From an uncultured Barnesiella sp. (GTDB lineage Bacteria; Bacteroidota; Bacteroidia; Bacteroidales; Barnesiellaceae_A), in assembly GCA_904502265.1 (NCBI GenBank), contig CAJGDT010000001.1:1-34551 (forward strand): a DNA stretch of 34,551 bases, written 5' to 3'. Position 1 is the stretch's first letter, and the number at the start of each line of letters is the position of its first letter. The notes below the pieces were generated by a model. The model was not told where the DNA came from and did no database searches. It worked only from the letters and a program-made list of their open reading frames with translations. The position numbers and the translations under genes are program-made. Shown here piece after piece: positions 1,556-30,908 of this stretch.

Positions 1556-3079
1556 ATGACAACAGAGAAAAAAATAAAGACCGCGTTAGTGTCGGTTTTT
1601 CATAAAGATGGTCTTGATGACATTATCAAAATGTTGCATGCCGATGGCGTGGAGTTCCTCTCTACCGGCGGTACACAATCGTTTATAGAATCATTGGGTA
1701 TTCCCTGCAATGCAGTGGAAGACCTTACCGGTTATCCCTCAATATTGGGTGGTCGCGTAAAAACCTTGCACCCCAAAGTATTTGGCGGTATCCTTAATCG
1801 TCGCGACAATGAGACGGATGCAGCTCAGATTGCCGAGTATGAGATTCCCTCAATCGACTTGGTAATTGTCGATTTGTATCCTTTTGAGCAAACTGTTGCT
1901 TCGGGCGCTGAAGAGGCTGCGATTATCGAAAAGATTGATATAGGTGGTATCTCGCTTATCCGTGCTGCTGCCAAGAACTTCAACGATGTGGCAATTGTTG
2001 CATCGAAAGGTCAATATGGTATCTTGCTTGATATACTCAAACGCAATGGTGCTAAGACTACACTTGAAGATCGTCGTTTGTTGGCTCGTGAGGCTTTTGC
2101 TGTTTCGTCGGGTTATGATAGCGCTATCTTCAATTATTTCGATGGTGGCGAAGGTTCTACCTTCCGCGCTGCTGTTAATGGTAACAAAGCCTTGCGCTAT
2201 GGCGAGAATCCTCACCAAAAGGGCGCTTTCTATGGCGACTTCGACGCCATGTTTGAGCAACTTCACGGTAAAGAGATTTCGTACAACAACTTGCTTGATA
2301 TCGATGCCGCTGTATCGTTGATAGCCGAGTTTGACGAAACAACATTTGCGGTACTCAAGCACAATAACGCTTGTGGTATTGCATCGCGCGATACAATCCT
2401 CGATGCGTGGACAGCAGCACTCGAGTGCGACCCTGTGTCGGCTTTTGGTGGCGTGCTTATTGCCAACCGTCCTATTGACTTGGCTACTGCCGAGGAGGTA
2501 AACAAGATTTTCTTTGAAGTAATTATCGCTCCCGAATATGCTCCTGAGGCATTGGAAGTGTTGAAACAAAAGAAAAATCGTATTATCCTTGTTCAAAAGC
2601 AACCCAATACCACAACCAAGCAATATCGTTCGTTGTTGGGTGGCGTGTTGGTACAAGATCGCGACTTGCACACTGAGCAACCCGAAGAGTTGCGTCAAGC
2701 AACCGAGCGCGCTGTTGATGCCGACCGTATTGCCGACTTGCTCTTTGCCAACAAGATTGTGAAGCATAGCAAATCGAACGCTATTGTGCTTGCCAAAAAT
2801 CGTCAACTCTGTGCCAGTGGTGTAGGTCAAACATCTCGCGTTGATGCATTGCGCCAAGCTATCGAGAAGGCTCATTCGTTCAACTTCGACCTCAATGGCG
2901 CAGTGATGGCTTCTGATGCATTCTTCCCCTTCCCCGACTGCGTAGAGATTGCGCACAAGGCCGGTGTTGATGCTGTGATACAGCCTGGTGGTTCAGTACG
3001 TGACCAAGAGACTATTGACTATTGCAATGCTAATAACATCGCGATGGTAATGACCGGTATTCGTCATTTTAAACATTGA
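1556..3079 (+). CDS. purH: bifunctional AICAR formyltransferase / IMP cyclohydrolase
   Basis: 507 aa. The N-terminal MGS-like domain (ALVSVFHKDGL...LSTGGT), the YGENPHQ motif and the C-terminal AICARFT region are all typical PurH. Confidence 0.97.
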   Translation: MTTEKKIKTALVSVFHKDGLDDIIKMLHADGVEFLSTGGTQSFIESLGIPCNAVEDLTGYPSILGGRVKTLHPKVFGGILNRRDNETDAAQIAEYEIPSIDLVIVDLYPFEQTVASGAEEAAIIEKIDIGGISLIRAAAKNFNDVAIVASKGQYGILLDILKRNGAKTTLEDRRLLAREAFAVSSGYDSAIFNYFDGGEGSTFRAAVNGNKALRYGENPHQKGAFYGDFDAMFEQLHGKEISYNNLLDIDAAVSLIAEFDETTFAVLKHNNACGIASRDTILDAWTAALECDPVSAFGGVLIANRPIDLATAEEVNKIFFEVIIAPEYAPEALEVLKQKKNRIILVQKQPNTTTKQYRSLLGGVLVQDRDLHTEQPEELRQATERAVDADRIADLLFANKIVKHSKSNAIVLAKNRQLCASGVGQTSRVDALRQAIEKAHSFNFDLNGAVMASDAFFPFPDCVEIAHKAGVDAVIQPGGSVRDQETIDYCNANNIAMVMTGIRHFKH

Positions 3080-3104
3080 AAACTAACTTTTAAAACAAAA
3101 CAGA

Positions 3105-4124
3105 ATGGGACTTTTCTCATTGACACAAGAAATAGCTGTCGACCTTGGAACTGCCAATACCATTATCATCCATGATGGTAAGATAGTGGTAGATGAGCCC
3201 TCGGTTGTGGCACTTGAGAAGAAGACTGAGAAACTCGTAGCAGTGGGTGAGAAGGCTCGCCAAATGCACGAAAAAACAGCACCTCATATTACAACTATCC
3301 GTCCTTTGCGTGATGGCGTTATTGCCGACTTCTATGCTGCCGAGCAAATGATACGCGGTATGGTGAAGATGGTAAATCCTCAACGTCGTTGGTTTACTCC
3401 CTCGTTGCGCATGGTTGTATGTATACCTTCGGGTAGTACCGAGGTAGAGATACGTGCGGTGCGTGACTCGGCCGAGCATGCCGGTGGTCGTGATGTGTAT
3501 ATGATATATGAGCCCATGGCAGCTGCTATCGGTATTGGTATAGACGTTACGGCTCCCGAGGGTAACATGATTGTGGATATAGGTGGTGGTAGCACCGAGA
3601 TTGCTGTAATCTCATTGGGTGGTATCGTTTCTAACAAGTCTATCCGTATAGCCGGTGACGACCTTACTGCCGATATTCAGGAGTATATGCGTCGTCAGCA
3701 TAATGTGCGTATTGGTGAACGTACTGCCGAGTTGATCAAGATTAATGTAGGTTCGGCACTTACCGAGTTGGCTGATCCCCCAGAAGATTATATTGTGCAT
3801 GGTCCTAACCAAATGACCGCATTGCCTATGGAGATACCCGTATCGTACCAAGAGGTGTCGCACTGTATTGAGAAATCTATCTCAAAAATTGAGGCTGCAG
3901 TGCTCAGCGCCTTGGAGCAAACTCCTCCTGAGTTGTATGCCGACTTGGTGCGTAATGGTATATATTTGGCAGGTGGTGGCGCATTGTTGCGCGGTCTTGA
4001 CAAACGTTTGACTGACAAGATTGGTATTACCTTCCATATTGCCGATGATCCTTTGCACGCTGTTGCAAAAGGTACCGGTGTGGCATTGAAAAATATCGAT
4101 GAATTTAACTTCTTGATTCGATAA
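3105..4124 (+). CDS. mreB: rod shape-determining protein MreB
   Basis: 339 aa with actin-fold motifs DLGTANT and DIGGGSTE, and the expected position ahead of mreC/mreD. Confidence 0.97.
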   Translation: MGLFSLTQEIAVDLGTANTIIIHDGKIVVDEPSVVALEKKTEKLVAVGEKARQMHEKTAPHITTIRPLRDGVIADFYAAEQMIRGMVKMVNPQRRWFTPSLRMVVCIPSGSTEVEIRAVRDSAEHAGGRDVYMIYEPMAAAIGIGIDVTAPEGNMIVDIGGGSTEIAVISLGGIVSNKSIRIAGDDLTADIQEYMRRQHNVRIGERTAELIKINVGSALTELADPPEDYIVHGPNQMTALPMEIPVSYQEVSHCIEKSISKIEAAVLSALEQTPPELYADLVRNGIYLAGGGALLRGLDKRLTDKIGITFHIADDPLHAVAKGTGVALKNIDEFNFLIR

Positions 4125-4145
4125 TAAGCAGAGCTAATATTACCC

Positions 4146-4182
4146 CGAGTTACACACTTCGCATGTGAAGTTGTGTAACTCG
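4146..4182 (+). other. stable intergenic hairpin between mreB and mreC
   Basis: cgagttacaca / tgtgtaactcg gives 11 bp, plus an inner cttc/gaag 4 bp. No clear T-tract follows. Confidence 0.5.
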
Positions 4183-4210
4183 TTGCGGTAAAATAAAGAA
4201 CGACTACTCG

Positions 4211-5056
4211 ATGCGCAATCTTATAGACTTTCTTATCAAACATCACGCTTGGATATTTTTTATATTCTACGTAGTGTTGAGTTGTACATTGCTTTTTTCG
4301 TCAAATCCTTACCAGCGAAGCGTATTTTTCGGCTCGTCAAATAGAGTCGTATCGCAAGTGTACGAAATGACCGATGCGGTATCGGGCTACTTCGGGCTTC
4401 GTAAAGCCAATGAGGAGTTGTTGATGCAAAATGGTGAGTTGGCTATGGAAAACTTGCAGTTGCGCCGTCAATTGCAACGATACAGCTATGCGGCCGCTGC
4501 CGATTCGCTTGCACAAAGCGACCCCATGTTGCAACAGTATGACTTTGTTTTGGCTCGAGTTATCAATAATAGCGTGAGCCATCTGGAGAATTATATAACG
4601 CTCGATAAAGGTCGTGCCGATGGAGTGGAACCCGAAATGGCCGTGGTGGACCATCGTGGTATTGTGGGTATTGTCAATGTTGTTAATGAGCATAGTTCGG
4701 TAGCAATATCGGTGCTCAATACCAAATTGCATGTGAGTTGCAAGGTGAAAGGAACCGATTGTTTCGGATCGTTGGTGTGGGATGGTCGCAGTGCCGCCTA
4801 TGCTGTGCTTGAGGAGATGCCTCGCCACGTTGAGTTTGTACCAGGTGATACGATTGTTACAAGTGGTTTCTCGGCAGTATTTCCCGATGGCGTAATGGTG
4901 GGCACAATACATGACTATGCCAAGCAGAAGGATGACAATTTCTATGCTATGCAAGTCAAACTTTCAACTGACTTTACCCAGCTGGGTGTAGTACGTGTTA
5001 TTCGCAATCACACACAAGACCAACAGCAATTGTTGGAGAAGGAGGCTCGTAAATGA
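4211..5056 (+). CDS. mreC: rod shape-determining protein MreC
   Basis: 281 aa with an N-terminal TM, a coiled-coil (NEELLMQNGELAMENLQLRRQLQ) and a beta-rich C-terminal domain. It lies between mreB and mreD. Confidence 0.9.
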   Translation: MRNLIDFLIKHHAWIFFIFYVVLSCTLLFSSNPYQRSVFFGSSNRVVSQVYEMTDAVSGYFGLRKANEELLMQNGELAMENLQLRRQLQRYSYAAAADSLAQSDPMLQQYDFVLARVINNSVSHLENYITLDKGRADGVEPEMAVVDHRGIVGIVNVVNEHSSVAISVLNTKLHVSCKVKGTDCFGSLVWDGRSAAYAVLEEMPRHVEFVPGDTIVTSGFSAVFPDGVMVGTIHDYAKQKDDNFYAMQVKLSTDFTQLGVVRVIRNHTQDQQQLLEKEARK

Positions 5057-5571
5057 ATATTAATCTGTTGCGCGAAATAGGTATAGCGCTGATATTTGTA
5101 TTGTTGCAGGTATTGGTATTCAATCAGATACACCTCTTTGGTGTGGCTGTTCCTTTGGTGTTTATATATGTTATTTTTCGCATGCCGTTGTCTCTGTCTA
5201 CAGCGTGGTTGCTTACAGCCTCGTTTTTCTTGGGGTTGGTTGTAGACATTTTCAGTAATACGCCCGGCATGAATGCATTGGCTTGTACAATATTTGCCTT
5301 TTTGCGTCGACCTGGTTTATCGCTATACCTTCCCCATGGTAGCGATTACGTGGCCGAAGTACCATCGATACGAGGCTTTGGTATGTGGCTTTATGTGCGT
5401 TATTCGCTAACACTTTCATTGCTTTATTGTGTATTGTTGTTCTCAATAGAGTCGCTCTCGTTGTTCGACTTTCCCTATCTGCTCATGCGTATAGTGAGTA
5501 GCACACTGCTTACGTTTGTACTTATTCTTTGTATTGATAGCTTGAGTCAAGGTCGTGAGAAAAGATTATAA
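5053..5571 (+). CDS. mreD: rod shape-determining protein MreD
   Basis: 172-aa polytopic membrane protein. It has an ATGA overlap with the mreC stop and the conserved operon position. Confidence 0.85.
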   Translation: MNINLLREIGIALIFVLLQVLVFNQIHLFGVAVPLVFIYVIFRMPLSLSTAWLLTASFFLGLVVDIFSNTPGMNALACTIFAFLRRPGLSLYLPHGSDYVAEVPSIRGFGMWLYVRYSLTLSLLYCVLLFSIESLSLFDFPYLLMRIVSSTLLTFVLILCIDSLSQGREKRL

Positions 5572-7417
5572 TCTTGAAAAGAGAAAGTATGTTATTGCTA
5601 CAGCCGTTGTTGCGATTGTGGTAATCTATATTGTGCGCCTATTCTCGTTGCAAGTAGGTGATAATGACTATAAACGATTTGCCGATAGTAATGCATTTCA
5701 GCGAAAAGTGCTTTATCCGTCGCGTGGCTTTGTGTATGACCGCAATGGCGAGCTGTTGGTTTATAATCAGCCGGCCTATGATGTGATGATGATACCGCGC
5801 GAGATGCGTTCGCTCGATACGCTTGATTTTTGTAATACGTTGGGTATCGATCTTGAGCAGTTCAATCGTTATATTGCTGATATGAAGGATCGTCGCAAGA
5901 ATCCCGGCTACTCAACTTATACACCACAGGTTTTCATGACGCAACTTTCGGCTCGCGATTATGGTCGACTGCAGGAAAAGTTGTATCGTTACCCCGGTGT
6001 GTATATCCAAAACCGTGTGCTTCGTGAGTATAGTCGTCCTATTGCGGCCAATGTATTGGGTAACATTCGCGAGGTATCACCGTCGGATATAGAGCGCGAC
6101 GATTACTATCGTCGAGGTGACTACACTGGCGACCTGGGTGTGGAGAAGTCGTTTGAGGATGTATTGCGTGGAGTAAAAGGCGAGGAGATACTTTTGCGAG
6201 ATGCTCATGGACGCATCAAGGGTAAGTATGAAGATGGTAAATACGATGTTCAGCCTATATCGGGCCGTAATATAACGCTGTCGATAGATGCCGATTTGCA
6301 GGCTTATGGCGAGAAACTGATGCAAGGCAAGACGGGTGCGATTGTGGCTATAGAACCCTCGACAGGCGAGATATTGGCGCTTGTGTCGAGTCCTACCTAC
6401 GACCCCTCTATCCTGGTGGGTCGTGAACGTGGAAAAAATTATGCGCGCCTTACTCGTGATCCGGGCAATCCCCTTTACGACCGTGCTATTATGGCGGTTT
6501 ATCCTCCGGGTTCAACATTTAAGCCTACTCAGGGACTTATCTTCCTTGAGGAGGGTATAATCACGCCCAATACCAATTATCCCTGTACCGGTGGTTTTGT
6601 TGTAGGAGGTTTGCGAGTAGGTTGTCACGCGCATGCCGCACCCCTGCCGCTGATACCTTCGTTGGCCACATCGTGCAATGCATATTACTGTTACGGATTG
6701 CGCTCGATGCTCGATAACCGCAGCCTTTATGAGAGTACATCCGAGGCTTTCGAGATATGGAAGAACCACTTGGTGTCGATGGGCTATGGTTACAAATTGG
6801 GTATTGACCTTCCCGGTGAGAAGCGTGGTTTCTTGCCTAATAGTGCCTATTACGACAAGTTCTATGGTAAGAATCGATGGAAGGCTCTCACCATTATATC
6901 TATTGCGATAGGTCAGGGTGAGATATTGGCTACCCCATTGCAAATAGCCAACCTCGCTGCTACGGTGGCTAATCGGGGTTATTTCTACACGCCTCACGTT
7001 GTGAAGGCTATACAAGATAGTGTAATTGATACGACTTATACTGTACGTCGCTATCCTTCGATCGATGCCAATCATTATGATGCTATTGTAGAGGGTATGC
7101 GTATGGCTGTTACCGATGGAACCTGTCGCACGGCCAATCTTAAAGATATAGAGGTGTGTGGAAAGACCGGTACGGCGCAAAATCCCCATGGTCGCGACCA
7201 CTCGGCATTTATGGGATTTGCTCCGATGAATAATCCTCAAATAGCCATAGCCGTATATGTCGAAAATGCCGGATTTGGTGCAACCTATGGTGTTCCTATT
7301 GGTAGCTTGATGATGGAGTACTACCTCAAGGGTGAGATAACCGACCCGGCTCGCAAAGATCTTGAACAAAGAATGTTTAACTCGAAAGTTGTAGGTAATA
7401 GTGGCAAGAAACGTTGA
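5555..7417 (+). CDS. mrdA: penicillin-binding protein 2 (elongasome transpeptidase)
   Basis: 620 aa with an N-terminal TM and transpeptidase motifs STFK (PPGSTFKP) and KTGTA. The GTG start overlaps the mreD end. Confidence 0.93.
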   Translation: MRKDYNLEKRKYVIATAVVAIVVIYIVRLFSLQVGDNDYKRFADSNAFQRKVLYPSRGFVYDRNGELLVYNQPAYDVMMIPREMRSLDTLDFCNTLGIDLEQFNRYIADMKDRRKNPGYSTYTPQVFMTQLSARDYGRLQEKLYRYPGVYIQNRVLREYSRPIAANVLGNIREVSPSDIERDDYYRRGDYTGDLGVEKSFEDVLRGVKGEEILLRDAHGRIKGKYEDGKYDVQPISGRNITLSIDADLQAYGEKLMQGKTGAIVAIEPSTGEILALVSSPTYDPSILVGRERGKNYARLTRDPGNPLYDRAIMAVYPPGSTFKPTQGLIFLEEGIITPNTNYPCTGGFVVGGLRVGCHAHAAPLPLIPSLATSCNAYYCYGLRSMLDNRSLYESTSEAFEIWKNHLVSMGYGYKLGIDLPGEKRGFLPNSAYYDKFYGKNRWKALTIISIAIGQGEILATPLQIANLAATVANRGYFYTPHVVKAIQDSVIDTTYTVRRYPSIDANHYDAIVEGMRMAVTDGTCRTANLKDIEVCGKTGTAQNPHGRDHSAFMGFAPMNNPQIAIAVYVENAGFGATYGVPIGSLMMEYYLKGEITDPARKDLEQRMFNSKVVGNSGKKR

Positions 7418-8849
7418 TGTGTGGAAATCGGTAGACAAGTTTACAATATTTCTGTATGTTGTACTAGTCTTTTTTGGTTGGGTAAGTATCTACGCAGCCA
7501 GTTACGACTTTGACCAGGCAAGCATATTCGATTTTGCTGAGCGTTCGGGCAAGCAGCTTGTGTGGATTGGCTTGTCATTTGTGTTGGCGTCTGTTATTAT
7601 GCTCATAGATTCACGTATGTTCGAGACATATGCCTATCTTATATACATAGCATTTATTTTGTTATTGCTCTTTACCTTGGTTGTGGCCGATGAGGTGAAG
7701 GGTTCCCGATCGTGGCTGACGATAACTTCGTCGGTGCGTCTACAGCCGGCCGAGTTTGCCAAGTTTGCTACGGCTCTGGCAGTGGCCAAGATGTTCAATG
7801 GATATAACTTCAGGTTTACCAGTCTGCCTAATTTTTTCAAAATAGTAGGCTTGGTGATATTGCCAATGTTGATTATTGTGATGCAGAAGGAAACAGGATC
7901 GGCCTTGGTATATCTGTCATTTGTGTTAATGATGTACCGTGAAGGTATGACCGGTTTGGTACTATTTGGCGGTATTTGTGCTATCGTTTACTTTATATTG
8001 GGTATAAAGTTTAGTGCCGACATGTGGATGGGAGCGCCTTTAGGAGAAAGTATAGTGCTTATACTCATCTGTATTGTGTTAGTAGGTATCATACGCTATT
8101 TTGCCGAGAATAAATTGGTGGCGCGCAATCTCTCTATATTTTATATTCTTGTAGCGATTGTGGTCTCGATACTCATGCTATGTGATGTGGCAGTACCTAT
8201 GCTTTATGTGCTACTGGGTGTAGTGCTTTTGTCGGTGCTCTATCTTGTGGCGATTTATTTCTCGCACTTCTCGTCTAAGTTATTGGTTGCTGCGGCTGTA
8301 ACCATTGTATCGGTGGCGTTTCTCTTTTCGTGCAACTTTGTTTTCAGTAAGTTGCAACCTCACCAACGCACTCGCATAGAGGTGTTGTTGGGTATGAAAG
8401 AGGACTTGCGCGATGCAGGATACAATGTCAACCAGTCCAAAATTGCCATTGGTTCGGGCGGTTTCTGGGGAAAGGGGTTCTTGAATGGTACGCAGACCAA
8501 GCTCAAGTATGTGCCGGAGCAGGATACCGACTTTATTTTCTGTACTATTGGCGAGGAGGAAGGTTTCTGGGGCTCTTGTCTGGTGTTGGTGCTATTTACG
8601 GCTCTGATATTGCGTATCATGACTATTGCAGAGCGACAGCCACGACCCTTTGGCCGAGTTTATGCCTATTGTGTGCTGGGAATATTCTTCTTCCACCTGT
8701 TTATTAATATAGGTATGGTTATCGGATTGTGCCCGGTGATTGGTATTCCGTTGCCGTTCTTTAGTTATGGAGGCTCGTCGTTGTGGGGCTTTACCATATT
8801 GCTGTTTATACTTCTGCGTATCGATGCCTCGCGCAGTGAGCACTTCTGA
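7401..8849 (+). CDS. rodA: SEDS-family peptidoglycan polymerase RodA
   Basis: 482-aa polytopic membrane protein of the FtsW/RodA family (VPEQDTDFIF, GIPLPFFSYGGSS). The start codon is non-ATG (GTG), so its position is approximate. Confidence 0.9.
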   Translation: MARNVDVWKSVDKFTIFLYVVLVFFGWVSIYAASYDFDQASIFDFAERSGKQLVWIGLSFVLASVIMLIDSRMFETYAYLIYIAFILLLLFTLVVADEVKGSRSWLTITSSVRLQPAEFAKFATALAVAKMFNGYNFRFTSLPNFFKIVGLVILPMLIIVMQKETGSALVYLSFVLMMYREGMTGLVLFGGICAIVYFILGIKFSADMWMGAPLGESIVLILICIVLVGIIRYFAENKLVARNLSIFYILVAIVVSILMLCDVAVPMLYVLLGVVLLSVLYLVAIYFSHFSSKLLVAAAVTIVSVAFLFSCNFVFSKLQPHQRTRIEVLLGMKEDLRDAGYNVNQSKIAIGSGGFWGKGFLNGTQTKLKYVPEQDTDFIFCTIGEEEGFWGSCLVLVLFTALILRIMTIAERQPRPFGRVYAYCVLGIFFFHLFINIGMVIGLCPVIGIPLPFFSYGGSSLWGFTILLFILLRIDASRSEHF

Positions 8850-8869: not shown

Positions 8870-9235
8870 TTATTTATTAAATGAGTTGCGCTTGACGATA
8901 GCTGCTTCTAATGCTTTACGTCCAGCCTCGGTCATCAAGCCGCGCCTTTCGAGGTCGGCGCAACGTTGTATATTCAATTCGGTCCAGTGGCTGTTTTTGC
9001 GACGTGGTGATAGCCGTTGAGCCAGTCGCCCATCGGGTAATCGTTTCAAGGTAGAATCTATCCATCCGTAACATAATGCTTCCTCGACTACTTCTATATA
9101 AGGTATAACGCCCTCTCGTGGTACACAGCTACGCGAAGTTACTACCCAGCATACATGCTCGGTAGAGTGATTCGTTTCAAGCCAATGTCTCAAATCGGAA
9201 CGTTGGGTGTAGGGTAGAAGATTTATAATATCCAT
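8870..9235 (-). CDS. YdeI/OmpD-associated family protein
   Basis: 121 aa. The pattern RSDLRHWLETNH...WVV...EEALCYGWIDS...RLSPRRKNSHWTELN is characteristic of the YdeI/OmdA domain. Confidence 0.7.
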   Translation of the reverse strand: MDIINLLPYTQRSDLRHWLETNHSTEHVCWVVTSRSCVPREGVIPYIEVVEEALCYGWIDSTLKRLPDGRLAQRLSPRRKNSHWTELNIQRCADLERRGLMTEAGRKALEAAIVKRNSFNK

Positions 9236-9275
9236 ACTATCGGCTCAAGGCGTATTGTATGAATAGAGGCTTGAT

Positions 9276-9611
9276 TTACTCCTCGGTCTCTCTTGCTCGA
9301 GGTATGGCAATAGAGGTATAGAGTTGTAGAAATGCCGATATGGTAAGTAGAACAATCCAGTCGTTACCACCCTTAAACATCAGGTATGACGCAAATATCA
9401 GCATGAGTGTTGCCAAGAGTTCGATGAGAACCAGACGGCGCATGCGAGTGTTCTTGCCACGATAGGGTGTTATGAGACGTATGACCGACATGCCGGCTGC
9501 GCCTACAGCAAAGATGTAGGGAACCCACTCCTCGAAGAGGAAAAGAGGGAGTAAAGCACCTACTACAACGAGCATGGCCGATGCCTTGAAAATGATATCT
9601 TTTATATTCAT
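9276..9611 (-). CDS. small integral membrane protein, unknown function
   Basis: 111 aa with about 4 hydrophobic spans. Preferred over the overlapping 9373-9666 ORF, which is Arg/Ser/His-rich. Confidence 0.6.
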   Translation of the reverse strand: MNIKDIIFKASAMLVVVGALLPLFLFEEWVPYIFAVGAAGMSVIRLITPYRGKNTRMRRLVLIELLATLMLIFASYLMFKGGNDWIVLLTISAFLQLYTSIAIPRARETEE

Positions 9612-9622
9612 TACTTTGTGGA

Positions 9623-9979
9623 TTATTGGTTGTTGTTGAGAGTCGGTATATCGGCCGGAGACTCAACTATCAGATATACATCTTCGTAAGGAAGCTGCAT
9701 GCCATGTTTCTCTCGTGCTATGCGGTCTATTGTGACAATGTCCGACTCTGAGTTGTTTATTTCTTCTTGCAGTTGTTTTATCAAAGCCTCCTCTTTAGCA
9801 ATTTCTTGTTTGAGGGTTCTGATATGAGTATCGTTTTCGCAAATGTCTAAGTAACTATTATTCTTGAGAATAAATAGATGCCAGATGACAAAACCCACGA
9901 TGAGTGCTGCCGGGAGGTAGGGAATGATATTATGTTTGATATAGTGCAGTGTGGCTGCAAATTTCTCTTTCATGTTCAT
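9623..9979 (-). CDS. septum formation initiator family protein (FtsB/DivIC-like)
   Basis: 118 aa with a single N-terminal TM, a coiled-coil (IRTLKQEIAKEEALIKQLQEEI), and IDRIAREKHGMQLPYEDV, which resembles the FtsB C-terminal motif. Confidence 0.75.
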   Translation of the reverse strand: MNMKEKFAATLHYIKHNIIPYLPAALIVGFVIWHLFILKNNSYLDICENDTHIRTLKQEIAKEEALIKQLQEEINNSESDIVTIDRIAREKHGMQLPYEDVYLIVESPADIPTLNNNQ

Positions 9980-10972: not shown

Positions 10973-13888
10973 ATGAATATGAAAACAAGAAAATTAGGCA
11001 TGCTGTTGCTGTTGCTCATCACCACCTGCTTCTATTCGGTGGCGCAATTGAGCACCTTTACTTTGCGTAATGGCGCAACAGTTTACATCTGGGAAGACAA
11101 GTCGCAACCCGATGTGTATGGTATGGTTACCTTCAATGTAGGTTCTATTGACGATCCTGTACAATATACAGGTTTGGCTCACTACCTCGAACACGTTATG
11201 TTTAAAGGTACACAAACAATAGGTGCTCTTGACTGGGGTAAAGAGAAACCCTTGTATGAGCAAATTATTGCCAAATATGACGAGATGGCAGCTACCACTG
11301 ATGTTAAGGCTAAGGAGGCTCTTGGTCTTGAAATCAATAAACTCTCGGTAGAAGCTGCTCAATATGCCGCTGCCAATGAGTTTACTTTGTTGGTAGACGG
11401 TATGGGTGGTCAAGGTCTTAATGCAGGTACCGGTTATGACCAAACTATGTACTACAATACATTCCCTCCCACACAACTCGAAAAGTGGTTGGAGCTTTAT
11501 AGCGAGCGTCTTCTCGATCCCGTATTCCGTGGCTTCCAAACAGAGCTTGAGGCTGTGTATGAGGAGTATAACATGTACCAAGATAACATAGGTTCGAACC
11601 TCTCTCAATTTATCTTTGGTGAGGCTTTCAAGGGCACTCCCTATGGTCGTCCTATCATTGGTTTGCCCGAGCACTTGAAAAATCCCAGCTTGAGCAACTT
11701 GATTAACTTCTATGAGGACTGGTATGGTCCCGAAAATATGGCTATTATTCTTGTTGGTAATCTCGATGCTGCCAAGGCTGTGTCGCTCGTTCGTCAAAAG
11801 TTTGAGCGTATTCCTCGTCGCGGTGTTCAAACACACGCCGAGATCAATCGCACTCCCTTCAGCGGTCGCAAGGTTATCTCTGAGAAACTTTTCTACCAAC
11901 CCTTTGTAGCTATGGTTTACAATGGTGTTGCTTCAAACTCGGCCGACGAAATCGCCTTGTCGGTAGCTACACAATTGCTCACCAACGGCCAATCAACCGG
12001 TATTCTCGACAAACTCGCCGTTGATGGTACTATCATGGGTGCTGCTGCATCGCCTGTGTCATTCCGTAACGCCGGTATCGTAATGCTCCAAATCTTCCCC
12101 GCTTTCGACCAAAGCCAAGGCAAATATGACAGCCATGCTTCGGTTGAGAAGATGATGGTTAATGCTATCGAGCAATTGCGCAGTGGTGCATTTACAGTTG
12201 AACAACTTGAGGCCGTGAAGAATGCGATGATTCGCGACTTCCAATTGGGTATGGAGTCGAACAATGCCAAGGCTCAAAATCTCTCGAATCTCTTCAATAC
12301 AGGTACTAACCCCGTAGAACTTGTAAACTATACTCAAAACGTTGCTGCTATTACTCCCGAGGATATTATCAACGTGGTAAACAAATACCTTAACAACGAT
12401 GTTTTGGTAGTAAATGTACAAGAGATAAGAGGCGACCGTAAGGTGACAAAACTCGACAAGGTTGCTAAACCCGGTTATCAACCCGTTGAGGCTGTTCGTG
12501 GTGTGAAGAGTGAGTATGCTCAATACCTCGAGTCAATGGAAGTTCCCGCTCCCGAGCCCGACTATTGTGACTTCAGCTCAGTACAAGAGCGTCCTATCAA
12601 TACTCGCAGTAAACTCTATTATACAGAAAATCCCGAGAACGAGGTTTATAGCCTTACATTGCGTTATGGTGTAGGTACTCGTCGCATGCCTATCTTGGCT
12701 TATGCCGTTCCTTTGATGAACAACGCCGGTACAATGGCTCACCTCACTCCCTACGAGTTTAAGCAAGCATTGGCTCACCTCAATACTACTATCAACTACT
12801 CGGTATCTAAGGACTATATGACTGTAACACTCTATGGTTCGGAGAGCTCGCTTACAGCTGCTTGCCAACTCTTGCAGCGTCAAATTCTCATGCCCCAATT
12901 GGACGAGAAGCAATTGCAAGGTATCATTGGTCAAGAGTATAGCTCACGTATGAGCGAGAAGGAGAGCGTAGAGTCGCAACAACAAGCCTTGATGCAATAC
13001 ATGCTCTATGGTCAAAACTCAGACTTCCTTAACCGTATGCCTCTCCAAAAGGTAGTAGAACTCTCGGCCGGTGAGTTGTCTGCAGCCTTCCGTGAGGCTA
13101 CCAACTATGAGTTTACTGCTCACTATGTAGGTACAATGCCCTTCGAGCAAGTATATCAAATCTTGAGCACCAACTTGCCTCTTATCGAGAACGAGACTGT
13201 ATCTCACTCACCCGAGGTAATGGACCGTGAAGAATATACTGAGAATACTATCTACTTCTTGCCCAATGACAAGGCTAAACAAAGCAACATCTACTTCTTT
13301 GTAGAGGGTCAACCCTTCGATATCAATGAGTCTATCACAATGGAAGCCTTTACAACATACTTCGGTGCCGGTTTCGGTAGCCTCGTTGTAGACGAGATTC
13401 GTGAGAAACGTGCTATGGCTTATACTGCTTATGGTGCTGTGAATGCTCCCCAATTGCCCGGTAAAGATTGGATGTTTATGGGTTATGTAGGCACACAAGC
13501 TGACAAGACTCTCGAAGCATTGCAAGTATACACCGACTTGTTGAACGACATGCCTCAAGCTCGTGAAAACTTTGACGTAATCAAGACCAACATGCGCGAG
13601 TCGCTCTTGAGCGAGAAGCCCGGTTTCCGTAACCGTAGCATGGTGTTTGAGTACTGGAAGCGCATGGGCTACACTCAAGACCCCGCTATCGACAACATGA
13701 AGCGCATCGAAGAACTTTCTTTCGACGATGTTGTGAAGTTCTACGAAGAGAATATCAAGGGCAAACCTATTGCTATTGCTATTGTAGGTAGTCCTAAGGA
13801 TGTTAAGGAGAAAGACTTGGCTAAGTTTGGTAAAGTTGTTAAGATCAAACGTAGCGAACTCTACACCGACGATTCGCTCTCGTTCTAA
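10973..13888 (+). CDS. M16 (pitrilysin/insulinase) family zinc peptidase, secreted
   Basis: 971 aa with a signal peptide and the inverted zinc motif HxxEH (HYLEHVMFKGT). It has the double-length M16 architecture. Confidence 0.9.
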   Translation: MNMKTRKLGMLLLLLITTCFYSVAQLSTFTLRNGATVYIWEDKSQPDVYGMVTFNVGSIDDPVQYTGLAHYLEHVMFKGTQTIGALDWGKEKPLYEQIIAKYDEMAATTDVKAKEALGLEINKLSVEAAQYAAANEFTLLVDGMGGQGLNAGTGYDQTMYYNTFPPTQLEKWLELYSERLLDPVFRGFQTELEAVYEEYNMYQDNIGSNLSQFIFGEAFKGTPYGRPIIGLPEHLKNPSLSNLINFYEDWYGPENMAIILVGNLDAAKAVSLVRQKFERIPRRGVQTHAEINRTPFSGRKVISEKLFYQPFVAMVYNGVASNSADEIALSVATQLLTNGQSTGILDKLAVDGTIMGAAASPVSFRNAGIVMLQIFPAFDQSQGKYDSHASVEKMMVNAIEQLRSGAFTVEQLEAVKNAMIRDFQLGMESNNAKAQNLSNLFNTGTNPVELVNYTQNVAAITPEDIINVVNKYLNNDVLVVNVQEIRGDRKVTKLDKVAKPGYQPVEAVRGVKSEYAQYLESMEVPAPEPDYCDFSSVQERPINTRSKLYYTENPENEVYSLTLRYGVGTRRMPILAYAVPLMNNAGTMAHLTPYEFKQALAHLNTTINYSVSKDYMTVTLYGSESSLTAACQLLQRQILMPQLDEKQLQGIIGQEYSSRMSEKESVESQQQALMQYMLYGQNSDFLNRMPLQKVVELSAGELSAAFREATNYEFTAHYVGTMPFEQVYQILSTNLPLIENETVSHSPEVMDREEYTENTIYFLPNDKAKQSNIYFFVEGQPFDINESITMEAFTTYFGAGFGSLVVDEIREKRAMAYTAYGAVNAPQLPGKDWMFMGYVGTQADKTLEALQVYTDLLNDMPQARENFDVIKTNMRESLLSEKPGFRNRSMVFEYWKRMGYTQDPAIDNMKRIEELSFDDVVKFYEENIKGKPIAIAIVGSPKDVKEKDLAKFGKVVKIKRSELYTDDSLSF

Positions 13889-18170: not shown

Positions 18171-18614
18171 TTACCCTTTTCGGAATCTTGATGCCATCAA
18201 AATGCCTGTTGTTGACAATATTGTTATTGCCATGATAATGAGATGGTATGCCCACGAAGGTGTTGATTTGCTCTCTATCTCATTGGGTGGATGTCGGTAT
18301 GGAATGGAATCGATGGTGTGTATTTCTTGCATTTGTATAGTTATGCTGTCTTGTCGAGGTTCGATGGTGAGAGTGTGGTGTAGAGTACCGTTTGAGATAG
18401 TGGCCATGCTGTGTGCTCCATTGCCTTGCAGCAGACTTGTGGTGTCGGAGGTGCGATTGCTGTGTGATTCGCCTTGGGTAACTATCTCTATTATAGTGTC
18501 TCTCAGGGTTATGTACTCTTTGTGACTCCTATCGGTGGGAATGTATATGGTCTTGGTACATGCTATTGTGCCGGCGAGGCCAAGGATTGTAACAATAGTG
18601 ATTAGTTGTTTCAT
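18171..18614 (-). CDS. lipoprotein with C-terminal transmembrane anchor (unimolecular-spanin-like topology)
   Basis: The start is trimmed to MKQLITIVTILGLAGTIAC (lipobox-like Cys), giving 147 aa. The middle is Thr/Ser/His/Ile-rich, with a C-terminal TM WAYHLIIMAITILSTTGILMA followed by SRFRKG. The ATG overlaps the endolysin TGA (ATGA). Confidence 0.6.
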   Translation of the reverse strand: MKQLITIVTILGLAGTIACTKTIYIPTDRSHKEYITLRDTIIEIVTQGESHSNRTSDTTSLLQGNGAHSMATISNGTLHHTLTIEPRQDSITIQMQEIHTIDSIPYRHPPNEIESKSTPSWAYHLIIMAITILSTTGILMASRFRKG

Positions 18615-19018
18615 GCGTGTATCACCTCCCCTCTGTTGTTGCCATTGCGGCAGTAGCTTACATGTATCCACGCCGGACCTTGGCTATTGCCGCGTTCCCA
18701 TATCAATTGATCGAAGGGCATATTGAGTAAAATGTCAAACAATTTTCGATTTACTTGTGGCGACTCGGTGCATATATCTGCAGCTTCTCCTGTAAGATGT
18801 TGACTATTAGGTACTCCGCCTACACATTTGTTTAGTGTTTTGCTGCGATATCCGCTATTCACGCGAATGGGTTTTCGCAATGTTTCGCGAGCCGGGTCGA
18901 GTATATGCACCGCAAGTGCTGTAAGGTTTTCTGTAACTTCGGGGGTCGGAGTGTTGTCTATATGTAGTTGTCGAGCCAGAGCACTGTCTGTAAGTTCGGC
19001 TATTGTAAAATATTTCAT
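18611..19018 (-). CDS. peptidase M15 family (D-Ala-D-Ala carboxypeptidase-like) phage-type endolysin
   Basis: The start is trimmed to MKYFTIAEL, giving 135 aa. The pattern SGYRS...NKCVGGVPNSQHLTGEAADI...WIHVSY matches the Peptidase_M15_3 zinc-site pattern (H...D...H). It has ATGA overlaps on both sides. Confidence 0.82.
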   Translation of the reverse strand: MKYFTIAELTDSALARQLHIDNTPTPEVTENLTALAVHILDPARETLRKPIRVNSGYRSKTLNKCVGGVPNSQHLTGEAADICTESPQVNRKLFDILLNMPFDQLIWERGNSQGPAWIHVSYCRNGNNRGEVIHA

Positions 19019-19248
19019 ACGCCACCTCCGTTCTTGTCGTCTGTTGTGTGTGTGCGTACTCGGTAGCTGTAGTCTACCCCGAATAAAGCTCCGGCAAAGG
19101 TTACAACTTCGCCAAAAGCAACCAATACACTCTGATGAATTTCGCCCTCGGGATGTGTCCAAAATCCCGAAAATATAAGTACTATACCTGCCAGGCACAT
19201 GACGCATGCTGTGGTGAGGTGGACTGCCAATTTATTTATATTTGTCAT
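19015..19248 (-). CDS. holin-like small membrane protein (2 TM, charged C-terminus)
   Basis: The start is trimmed to MTNINKLAVHL, giving 77 aa. It has two hydrophobic spans (LTTACVMCLAGIVLIFSGFW and SVLVAFGEVVTFAGALFGV), then RVRTHTTDDKNGGGV. It sits immediately upstream of, and is translationally coupled to, the endolysin. Confidence 0.6.
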   Translation of the reverse strand: MTNINKLAVHLTTACVMCLAGIVLIFSGFWTHPEGEIHQSVLVAFGEVVTFAGALFGVDYSYRVRTHTTDDKNGGGV

Positions 19249-19374
19249 ACTCTTATTTTTTACTGCAAAGATGCAATGCAATAAGAGCTGACGAGTGCGA
19301 TAGAGAGAATTTGGGAAATAATATTTTGTTGTAGAATTTTTATAAAAACACTTGCATATATATTTATATGTGTG

Positions 19375-30515: not shown

Positions 30516-30908
30516 TTATCTCATCTTTTCGAGAATTTTGCGTAGATAATCTTGTCCTATCGATAACTGCGTGCGCATGTAGTCAAGTTGGCTGATGAGC
30601 AAGTTGATTTTCTCTTCTTGTTTCTTAATAGTGTTTTCTTGATCTTTGAGTGTGTTTAGTAACTCTTCCAAGTTATTCGACTTCTCTTCAAGTATCATTT
30701 CACCTTCGCCAAGTATAAACCATGTGGGGTTAAGCTCAGGGTATGTGCGCAGTATCTTAACAATACTATCATAAGAAAGACCTTTGCCCGAGCGTCTTTG
30801 TTTGCCAAGTGTACCTACGGCAATTTTTGCCTGTACAGTTATGCGGTTGTCGTTTAATCCTTTGCATTGCATAAATGCATCCAGACGGGTAAATAATGTG
30901 CTCTCCAT
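30516..30908 (-). CDS. phage CI-repressor-type HTH protein with C-terminal coiled-coil
   Basis: 130 aa. The N-terminal part, F..RLDAFMQCKGLNDNRI...IAVGTLGKQRR...LSYDSIVKILRTYPELNPTWFILGEGEM, resembles the Phage_CI_repr HTH domain ending in the L.G.GEM motif. The C-terminal part is a heptad-rich helix (LEELLNTLKDQENTIKKQEEKINLLISQL). Confidence 0.7.
   Translation of the reverse strand: MESTLFTRLDAFMQCKGLNDNRITVQAKIAVGTLGKQRRSGKGLSYDSIVKILRTYPELNPTWFILGEGEMILEEKSNNLEELLNTLKDQENTIKKQEEKINLLISQLDYMRTQLSIGQDYLRKILEKMR

Follow-up and report, generated by a model that had tools for sequence, protein, structure and literature searches.

Why would the chromosome of a gut bacterium of the order Bacteroidales carry, between housekeeping genes, three small genes arranged like the lysis cassette of a phage, and what might the bacterium do with them? 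The question is raised by a stretch of 34,551 nucleotides from an uncultured Barnesiella sp. (assembly GCA_904502265.1, contig CAJGDT010000001.1, positions 1 to 34,551; hereafter the window), in which a gene for a holin-like membrane protein (g1), a gene for an M15 peptidase (g2) and a gene for a lipoprotein resembling the unimolecular spanins (u-spanins) of phages (g3) follow one another on the minus strand. We consider it probable that this is a phage-derived lysis cassette which has been domesticated by its host lineage. The evidence set out below supports its description as a domesticated cassette resembling the type 10 secretion system (T10SS) and drawing on two large families of Bacteroidales phage proteins that are as yet undescribed.

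Three coupled genes of phage lysis type

The three genes are translationally coupled through two ATGA start/stop overlaps, one between g1 and g2 (19018-19015) and the other between g2 and g3 (18614-18611), at exactly the positions given in an initial annotation made from the letters of the window (Table 1). The product of g2 matches the Pfam family PF08291, Peptidase_M15_3 (E 1.5e-16; 60.9 bits against a cut-off of 23.2; profile positions 1-107 of 108) as well as the endolysins of PHROG 894 (E 1.9e-31), and its N-terminus, MKYFTIAELTDSALARQL, is not hydrophobic and contains no signal peptide, in agreement with the initial assignment to cell wall hydrolases of the Peptidase_M15 type lacking such a signal. 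The catalytic site is intact: none of the zinc ligands H74, D81 and H119 varies in alignments of 18 and of 16 homologues, and the SxHxxGxAxD motif aligns to the zinc-site region of the structure 1lbu. The AlphaFold2 (AF2) model displays a confident LAS fold (pLDDT 96.3, pTM 0.90), for which Foldseek retrieves 1lbu, a zinc DD-peptidase of Streptomyces, as the best match in the PDB (E 5.6e-6, TMq 0.67); further matches include VanXY, LdcB, hedgehog N-domains and the phage endolysins LysB4 and Ply500. The closest phage relatives are endolysins of Bacteroides and crAss-like phages with 50-58% identity, and 354 phage records match. Like canonical holin-dependent endolysins, g2 possesses neither a signal peptide nor a signal-arrest-release sequence, is coupled through ATGA to a gene of holin type and has its nearest kin among phage endolysins. 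Judged by its sequence and modelled fold, it is an intact cytoplasmic M15A/LAS-fold zinc peptidase of the endolysin type, for which muralytic activity is predicted.

The protein encoded by g1 has the size, the two transmembrane (TM) spans and the charged tail with which it was initially described. The hydrophobic spans comprise residues ~11-30 and ~41-58; there is an acidic loop (PEGEIH), a charged C-terminal tail (DYSYRVRTHTTDDKNGGGV) and a lysine at position 6 near the N-terminus, and the charge distribution predicts that both termini lie inside (N-in/C-in). In an alignment from nine species, 42 columns are invariant. The family to which g1 belongs comprises at least 4431 clusters, all of them named 'hypothetical' and some derived from Caudoviricetes assemblies. 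At more than 60 loci of Tannerellaceae/Parabacteroides, a g1-like gene lies directly upstream of an M15 peptidase gene, and in the IMG/VR contig L048, which is of myovirus type and encodes a tail sheath and a baseplate hub, a g1-like gene (62% identity) is followed by an amidase endolysin and then by a g3-like gene (L numbers denote the contigs and loci compared). Two further contigs, L049 and L050, carry a g1-like gene followed by M15. The M15 gene of the 'viral' contig L050 is identical to that of the chromosome of Parabacteroides sp. Marseille-P3160 (L123), and L050 also contains an integrase gene (phrog_1), indicating that the 'viral contigs' of this analysis include prophages predicted in bacterial genomes. 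With its small size, two TM spans, charged C-terminal tail and, in phages, a position directly upstream of the endolysin, g1 has the attributes of a class II holin; we call it holin-like by architecture and phage context only.

The lipoprotein g3 begins with a signal sequence ending in GLAGTIAC, whose cysteine is residue 19, and ends with a hydrophobic helix followed by SRFRKG. Its overall layout thus comprises a lipoprotein signal, a putative beta-rich periplasmic domain, a variable linker, a TM helix and a basic tail. By its sequence, g3 would be lipidated at Cys19. Residues +2 to +5 (TKTI) do not form the acidic surface-export signal of Bacteroidota lipoproteins, and g3 is therefore predicted to face the periplasm. 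The g3 family, defined by profile matches, comprises at least 1181 representative clusters, of which 348 match with E-values up to 1e-10. Among the best 148 of these representatives, a cysteine after a hydrophobic stretch is present in 141 and a C-terminal TM segment in 134, both together being found in 127. The u-spanin topology initially proposed for g3 (a lipoprotein-like signal and a C-terminal TM anchor followed by RFRK) is thus borne out by the predicted architecture of the protein and of its family. There is no cysteine in the periplasmic part of the window protein; a rough count finds one there in 65 of the 127 family members.

Phage relatives of g3 were found through pattern scans of IMG/VR and a profile search. 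In phage contigs, members of the family come after endolysins of the M15, amidase, phrog_873 and phrog_181 types. They directly follow the endolysin gene in L036 (phrog_873) and L034 (GH19-like, phrog_181), and in five other contigs (L033, L035, L042, L043 and L046) they lie beside terminase and tail-fibre genes. Accessory genes that hold their place around interchangeable endolysins are a hallmark of holins and spanins. The retention of g1-like and g3-like genes around unrelated types of endolysin accordingly points to both as parts of lysis cassettes, and it is by architecture and phage context only that g3 is designated u-spanin-like. In the same five contigs, the g3-like gene is followed by a gene for a protein of ~140 residues with an N-terminal TM segment, a coiled coil and a Cys-rich C-terminus (e.g., L046:5441-5866), which may be a candidate partner of g3 or a holin.

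Conservation in the g3 family is highest at four D-[ST]-[AILVMT] triplets, represented in the window protein by D39-T-I, D57-T-T, D89-S-I and D102-S-I. The same three-residue motif is that of the general O-glycosylation system of Bacteroidota (PMC8550257). Family representatives contain 3.53 triplets on average, compared with 0.43 in shuffled sequences, and 130 of the 148 contain three or more; per 100 residues, the density is 2.24 in the family versus 0.27 in the other proteins of the window. Phage copies carry the triplets as well (L035, L036, L042 and L046 among them). The triplets may be glycosylation sites, in which case host glycosylation of a phage lysis protein would matter, or they may represent a structural repeat.

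An orphan cassette at conserved chromosomal sites

Close relatives of g3 are rare, with only seven clusters among 5.8 billion proteins. Carrier genomes, all of them metagenome-assembled, were located through the contigs of these clusters and, among species-representative genomes, through the adjacent gene for a tetratricopeptide repeat (TPR) protein and through g1. The same trio occupies the identical site in at least 11 species-level genomes (L001, L003-L008, L010, L054, L057 and L058), between a divergently oriented GrpE-like/Hsp70/FKBP module on one side and the TPR-ribH-nitroreductase genes on the other. In the window, the cassette is separated from the abutting housekeeping genes by spacers of 165 bp and 142 bp. 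The carriers are Bacteroidales of ruminant and other animal guts; their NCBI labels vary, one of the genomes being labelled Barnesiella. All relatives with a TPR protein of 72% identity or more possess the cassette, and it is absent from more distant genomes with TPR-ribH. A second site, conserved among three Barnesiella species and free of phage genes, is bordered by queA, a TPR lipoprotein and a membrane protein on one side and by secreted proteins on the other. A search of genome contigs with a narrow g3 alignment found only the loci already known. The comparison of related genomes suggested in the initial annotation thus placed the trio at one shared site in at least 11 species and at a second site in three, and the term 'orphan' that it applied to the cassette is justified by the housekeeping genes adjoining both sides at the shared site.

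One carrier departs from this arrangement: in L009 the cassette is retained beside TPR-ribH only, the Hsp70 side having been replaced. In this genome (L009/L055, uncultured Porphyromonadaceae bin.76, positions 2960-5869), a gene for an M16-family peptidase, the counterpart of window positions 10973-13888, lies directly upstream of the cassette, where the others have the Hsp70 module, which places a rearrangement breakpoint just outside the promoter region of the cassette. A functional link to the neighbouring Hsp70 module was considered and rejected, since the adjacency is lost both in L009 and at the second Barnesiella locus.

Within the window, no gene for phage structure or integration (integrase, terminase, capsid or tail) was found among the larger open reading frames (ORFs), as the initial annotation had stated for the window as a whole; a few small ORFs (8870-9979 and 30516-30908) lay outside the scan. 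The housekeeping genes include purH, mreBCD, the genes for PBP2, RodA, the M16 peptidase and the nitroreductase, ribH, the Hsp70 module and a gene for an amylase of the type IX secretion system; PGI, GpsA, LysS and Mrp were assigned through synteny with L001. A complete elongasome/rod-shape cluster (mreB, mreC, a 172-residue mreD-like ORF, PBP2 and rodA) is located at 3105-8849, at a distance of ~10 kb, and nothing was seen that would link it to the cassette.

Origin, codon usage and selection

The cassette derives from a phage. In a maximum-likelihood tree of M15 proteins, the copies of the window clade and those of the second Barnesiella site form one clade (support 100/91), which is sister to the endolysins of Bacteroides and crAss-like phages (100/99), the Parabacteroides copies being more distant. 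Since both sites fall into one M15 clade, one acquisition is indicated, and the simplest history suggested by these sequences is a single capture followed by vertical descent with one or two relocations. At the shared site, the cassette is inherited vertically.

The codon usage of the cassette differs from the background: ATA accounts for 61% of Ile codons (background 29%), CGT for 0% of Arg codons (40%) and GGT for 16% of Gly codons (59%). The per-codon likelihood, -1.23, lies in the tail of the range spanned by the window's own genes (-0.92 to -1.25), not beyond it, and the G+C content equals that of the flanks. The same skew is seen in the orthologous cassettes of 10 of 11 species, each compared with its own flanks, even though synonymous sites are saturated between the species. 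Recent horizontal acquisition was examined as the source of the bias and ruled out, because the orthologues share the bias across saturated divergence. Thus, of the 'foreign codon usage' noted initially, the skew itself stands, whereas a recent foreign origin does not; the bias is instead a maintained property of the kind typical of genes with low expression, and the non-optimal codons plausibly limit the expression of the cassette.

All three reading frames are intact across the carriers and, with synonymous divergence saturated, this speaks against decay. The ratios of non-synonymous to synonymous substitution rates (dN/dS), calculated pairwise by the Nei-Gojobori method and approximate because dS is saturated (~1.1-1.7), are 0.115 for g1, 0.110 for g2 and 0.31 for g3 overall, the last being composed of 0.17 in the periplasmic core and ~0.7 in the signal and in the linker and TM parts. 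The values for the cassette are close to those of the housekeeping flanks (TPR 0.086, ribH 0.10, Hsp70 0.058). The cassette is under purifying selection and its architecture is conserved. The initial annotation had left open whether it was a domesticated or a remnant module; synteny, intact frames and purifying selection all favour the former and contradict the latter.

Upstream region and transcription

Two blocks, TATCGCA and GCATCTTTGCA, are the only invariant parts of an otherwise diverged spacer of 165-370 bp in eight species, the second of them containing a -7 box of the Bacteroides type (xAxxTTTG) and being separated from the g1 start codon by an A-rich leader of ~15 nt. At the second Barnesiella locus (L059, L061 and L062), both are likewise found ahead of the cassette, ~60 nt upstream of g1, and both are present ahead of it in L009, L057 and L058 as well; neither is found upstream of the phage or Parabacteroides copies. 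From this conservation we infer that the region is the cassette's own promoter. TATCGCA, at about -50 from the start codon of g1, could be the site of a regulator. A scan for promoters of the sigma-70 type and for terminators returned nothing above chance; Bacteroidota promoters differ from that consensus.

The cassette is transcribed in the gut, allowing for possible carry-over of DNA: three gut metatranscriptomic runs each contain a piece spanning the g2/g3 junction, two of which are listed, with lengths of 240 and 271 nt and one mismatch each. RNA depth over the cassette is ~3, similar to that of the TPR and GrpE-like flanks, the same reservation about DNA applying.

Table 1 Features of the cassette and its surroundings in the window
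Feature	Coordinates	Strand	Remarks
g1 (holin-like protein)	19248-19015	minus	77 aa; ATG 19248, TGA 19017-19015
g2 (M15 peptidase)	19018-18611	minus	135 aa; ATG 19018-19016, TGA 18613-18611
g3 (u-spanin-like lipoprotein)	18614-18171	minus	147 aa; ATG 18614-18612, TAA 18173-18171
Predicted signal peptide and lipobox of g3 (residues 1-19, ...TIAC, Cys19)	18558-18614	minus	Cys19 invariant in 21 aligned members
Predicted C-terminal TM helix of g3 (residues ~121-141), then SRFRKG	18192-18254	minus	hydropathy; AF2 helix 120-146
Promoter-like region	19264-19302	minus	TATCGCA 19302-19296; GCATCTTTGCA 19274-19264 with Bacteroides-type -7 box (xAxxTTTG)
Coverage by near-identical metatranscriptome contigs	18400-18705	.	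spans g2/g3 junction

Comparison with known systems

The systems closest to the cassette are the T10SS, exemplified by ChiWXYZ of Serratia marcescens (SmaLC) and YenLC of Yersinia entomophaga (HolA-PepB-Rz/Rz1). T10SS are clusters of holin, endolysin and spanin genes that are found outside phages, surrounded by essential genes, and act through lysis of a subpopulation; their function has been demonstrated only in a few Enterobacterales, and a related export of toxins by holin and endolysin has been reported for clostridial toxin loci (PMC10847048). Like these, the cassette brings together a putative holin, an endolysin of the LAS-fold zinc peptidase type and a putative spanin function outside a phage, among housekeeping genes and maintained by the host (PMC10847048). 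The differences are considerable. The cassette is found in Bacteroidota rather than Enterobacterales; its outer-membrane step is assigned to a single protein combining a lipoprotein signal with a TM helix, in place of an Rz/Rz1 pair; g2 is M15A-like (1lbu) and only remotely similar to ChiX (5opz, Foldseek E 0.12); and g1 is unrelated to known holin families. Furthermore, no co-regulated cargo or bimodal regulator was found beside the cassette, whose lytic action is predicted from the genes: its neighbours are the divergent Hsp70/GrpE/FKBP-SH3b module and TPR-ribH, and the upstream TATCGCA provides a hint of regulation.

Criteria for u-spanins, together with 13 families of them, have been described by Kongari et al. 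2018 (PMC6139136). Like gp11 of phage T1 and other u-spanins (PMC6139136), g3 combines an N-terminal signal of an outer-membrane lipoprotein with a C-terminal TM segment and is the last gene of its cassette. It also resembles them in that its family occurs beside endolysins of varied types. The mainly beta-stranded, cysteine-free periplasmic domain of the u-spanins may have a counterpart in the window protein, which is devoid of periplasmic cysteines and whose periplasmic part is beta-structured in a poor model. Unlike the described u-spanins, g3 has no detectable similarity to any spanin family of PHROG, its family is marked by four O-glycosylation sequons, and some of the phage members are followed by an Rz-like TM/coiled-coil protein.

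The M15 endolysins of Bacteroides and crAss-like phages (PHROG 894; e.g., BF486P2, BKR1 and cr125_1) are of the same size as g2, 50-58% identical to it over the full length and form its sister group; they are also encoded in the same position, after a gene for a holin-type membrane protein and before one for a membrane-anchored protein. The domesticated clade differs from them by a 4-residue insertion (GNxxGPAW), by its chromosomal location and by the lack of virion genes, and the genes neighbouring the endolysin in these phages belong to other families (larger holins and coiled-coil proteins with an N-terminal TM segment). In the crAss-like phage cr125_1 (L031, 2118-4818), the M15 endolysin gene and its neighbours contain in-frame TAG codons under translation table 11, in keeping with the reassignment of stop codons known from some crAss-like phages.

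A further type of module, found in Tannerellaceae and other Bacteroidales, is annotated as HU family DNA-binding protein, hypothetical protein and D-Ala-D-Ala carboxypeptidase family metallohydrolase. Such modules are present in several copies per genome, whereas the window cassette is single, and their M15 proteins are only 35-44% identical to that of the window. An HU-like gene precedes the module in 58 of the 83 loci L048-L130, some of which are orthologous, so that these counts are not independent, and in none of the Barnesiellaceae cassette loci of that set; the window cassette thus differs in lacking the HU gene and in having a putative promoter of its own. In the Parabacteroides/Tannerellaceae loci L064-L130 (e.g., L103:124-7060 and L070:273-7117), the modules consist of a g1-like gene, an M15 gene and, often, a gene for a lipoprotein with a C-terminal TM segment, frequently with a 154-residue gene of unknown function upstream. 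About 12-16 of the module loci are located just downstream of genes for a C39-peptidase ABC exporter, HlyD and sometimes VKOR; this C39/HlyD neighbourhood is a bacteriocin-type export locus and does not consist of phage genes.

How the cassette may act, and what else it could be

Under the reading that we favour, an ancestor of a Barnesiellaceae-type clade of Bacteroidales from ruminant and other animal guts captured a holin-endolysin-spanin module from a Bacteroidales phage; since then, the module has descended vertically as an independent unit that brings along its conserved putative promoter. The class-II-type, holin-like g1 would build up in the inner membrane and open it at a trigger point, upon which the signal-less zinc peptidase g2 would enter the periplasm and cut the peptide stems of the peptidoglycan. 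Bridging the outer membrane, through the lipid on Cys19, and the inner membrane, through its C-terminal helix, g3 would then disrupt or fuse the outer membrane once the cell wall has been lost. Hole formation, muralytic activity, lipidation and outer-membrane disruption are thus predicted from the sequences, as is any biological purpose. Since purifying selection maintains genes that are lethal by design in all members of the clade, their use, by analogy with the T10SS, would most likely be the regulated lysis of a subpopulation, whose cell contents are released for the benefit of kin. More generally, the bacteria probably use the cassette for self-controlled lysis or release of cell contents; autolysis, release of vesicles or DNA and export of cargo, all named in the initial annotation, may be among its uses.

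Several observations weigh against this reading. Lysis as well as muralytic and membrane activities are predicted from the parts, and two of these lack named relatives. The profile searches for holin and spanin families that the initial annotation had suggested did not place either g1 or g3 in a named family: g1 has no significant match in Pfam, PHROG or NCBIfam, its best hits being below the thresholds, and belongs to no curated holin family there, and g3 matches neither Pfam, the spanin families of PHROG nor NCBIfam, nor, in a tblastn search, any of 50,697 GenBank phage records (INPHARED). The beta-rich periplasmic domain of g3 is weakly supported, by a poor AF2 model (pLDDT 61, pTM 0.27) in which DSSP finds six strands but no helix over residues 20-119. 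The TM/coiled-coil protein encoded after the phage g3-like genes has a weak match to an Rz-like spanin (phrog_739, E 0.005), so that in those phages the g3 family may work with a partner and not alone. In bulk gut RNA, transcripts reach about the level of the flanks, which fits a strictly silent suicide module poorly, and such RNA, to which DNA carry-over may contribute, cannot separate low-level expression from expression in a subpopulation. Neither a cargo gene nor a dedicated regulator is evident beside the cassette, and no transcription factor gene is adjacent to it. Finally, the saturation of dS makes the measure of selection an approximate one.

Some of these observations would sit well with a role in the cell envelope that does not involve lysis, which we regard as unlikely but as the alternative that fares best. 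In that case, g2 would act as a housekeeping carboxy- or endopeptidase, g1 would leak small amounts of it and g3 would be a tether or regulator, the wall being remodelled without cell death. Expression at about the level of the flanks is what such a role would lead one to expect; structurally, g2 is matched best by a DD-carboxypeptidase (1lbu) and not by a characterised endolysin; and the conservation of g1, as gauged by its invariant columns, is very strong, which is unusual for holins. The T10SS of Serratia, too, was originally modelled as non-lytic, but that model has been overturned by cryo-electron tomography (PMC10847048). The exact architecture and gene order of a phage lysis cassette have, however, been kept, relatives occupy genuine lysis positions in phages, and the maintained non-optimal codons suit the tightly limited expression of toxic genes.

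Another proposal, to which we attach a slim chance, is that the cassette lyses the cell in the service of something encoded elsewhere, as the helper module of an unlinked tailocin, gene transfer agent-like particle or satellite, or else that it is an abortive-infection device which lyses the cell before phage progeny mature. Pyocins and particles of the PBSX type depend on phage-type lysis cassettes, and the conserved TATCGCA upstream of the cassette, as a possible regulator site, would be compatible with control of this kind. Yet the 15 kb to each side of the cassette contain no particle gene, be it in the window or at any syntenic locus, and none of the three cassette proteins matches a defence family of PADLOC.

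Two explanations remain. That the cassette is a neutral, decaying remnant of an old prophage is very improbable: the absence of other phage genes nearby and the atypical codons would fit, but the frames, the catalytic residues, the promoter-like element and, in most species, the ATGA overlaps are conserved in at least 14 species, with dN/dS between 0.11 and 0.31 at saturated synonymous divergence. Hardly any credence is due to the possibility that it forms the margin of an intact prophage, as raised in the initial annotation, or of another mobile element reaching beyond it: lysis genes often lie at the ends of prophages and some relatives come from predicted viral contigs, but housekeeping genes abut both sides, the synteny of both flanks holds across at least 10 species, the larger ORFs of the window include no integrase, terminase, capsid or tail gene, and no joint skipping the cassette was present in the four sequencing runs compared with the window.

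Implications for gut Bacteroidales and their phages

No prior description was found in the literature on holins or endolysins of Barnesiella or on spanins of Bacteroides. At its most far-reaching, the domesticated cassette would be the first case of T10SS-like programmed lysis in Bacteroidota, a core-genome device fired by a subpopulation of gut Barnesiellaceae to release goods of the cytoplasm or periplasm, DNA or vesicles, with an undescribed, sequon-cored spanin family of more than 1000 clusters whose action depends on O-glycosylation; we put this forward tentatively, as possible rather than likely. A cassette of this kind, inherited vertically and maintained by selection in an abundant clade of gut Bacteroidales, would carry programmed altruistic lysis into the dominant Gram-negative phylum of the gut, where enzymes, DNA or vesicles could be set free by it. 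Two very large families of 'hypothetical proteins' gain names and testable roles, one as a two-TM holin candidate (at least 4431 clusters) and the other as a u-spanin-like lipoprotein (at least 1181), and lysis genes could be annotated better in gut phages, relatives of therapeutic interest included. The sequons of g3 also pose a new question, namely, whether phage lysis proteins need O-glycosylation by their hosts.

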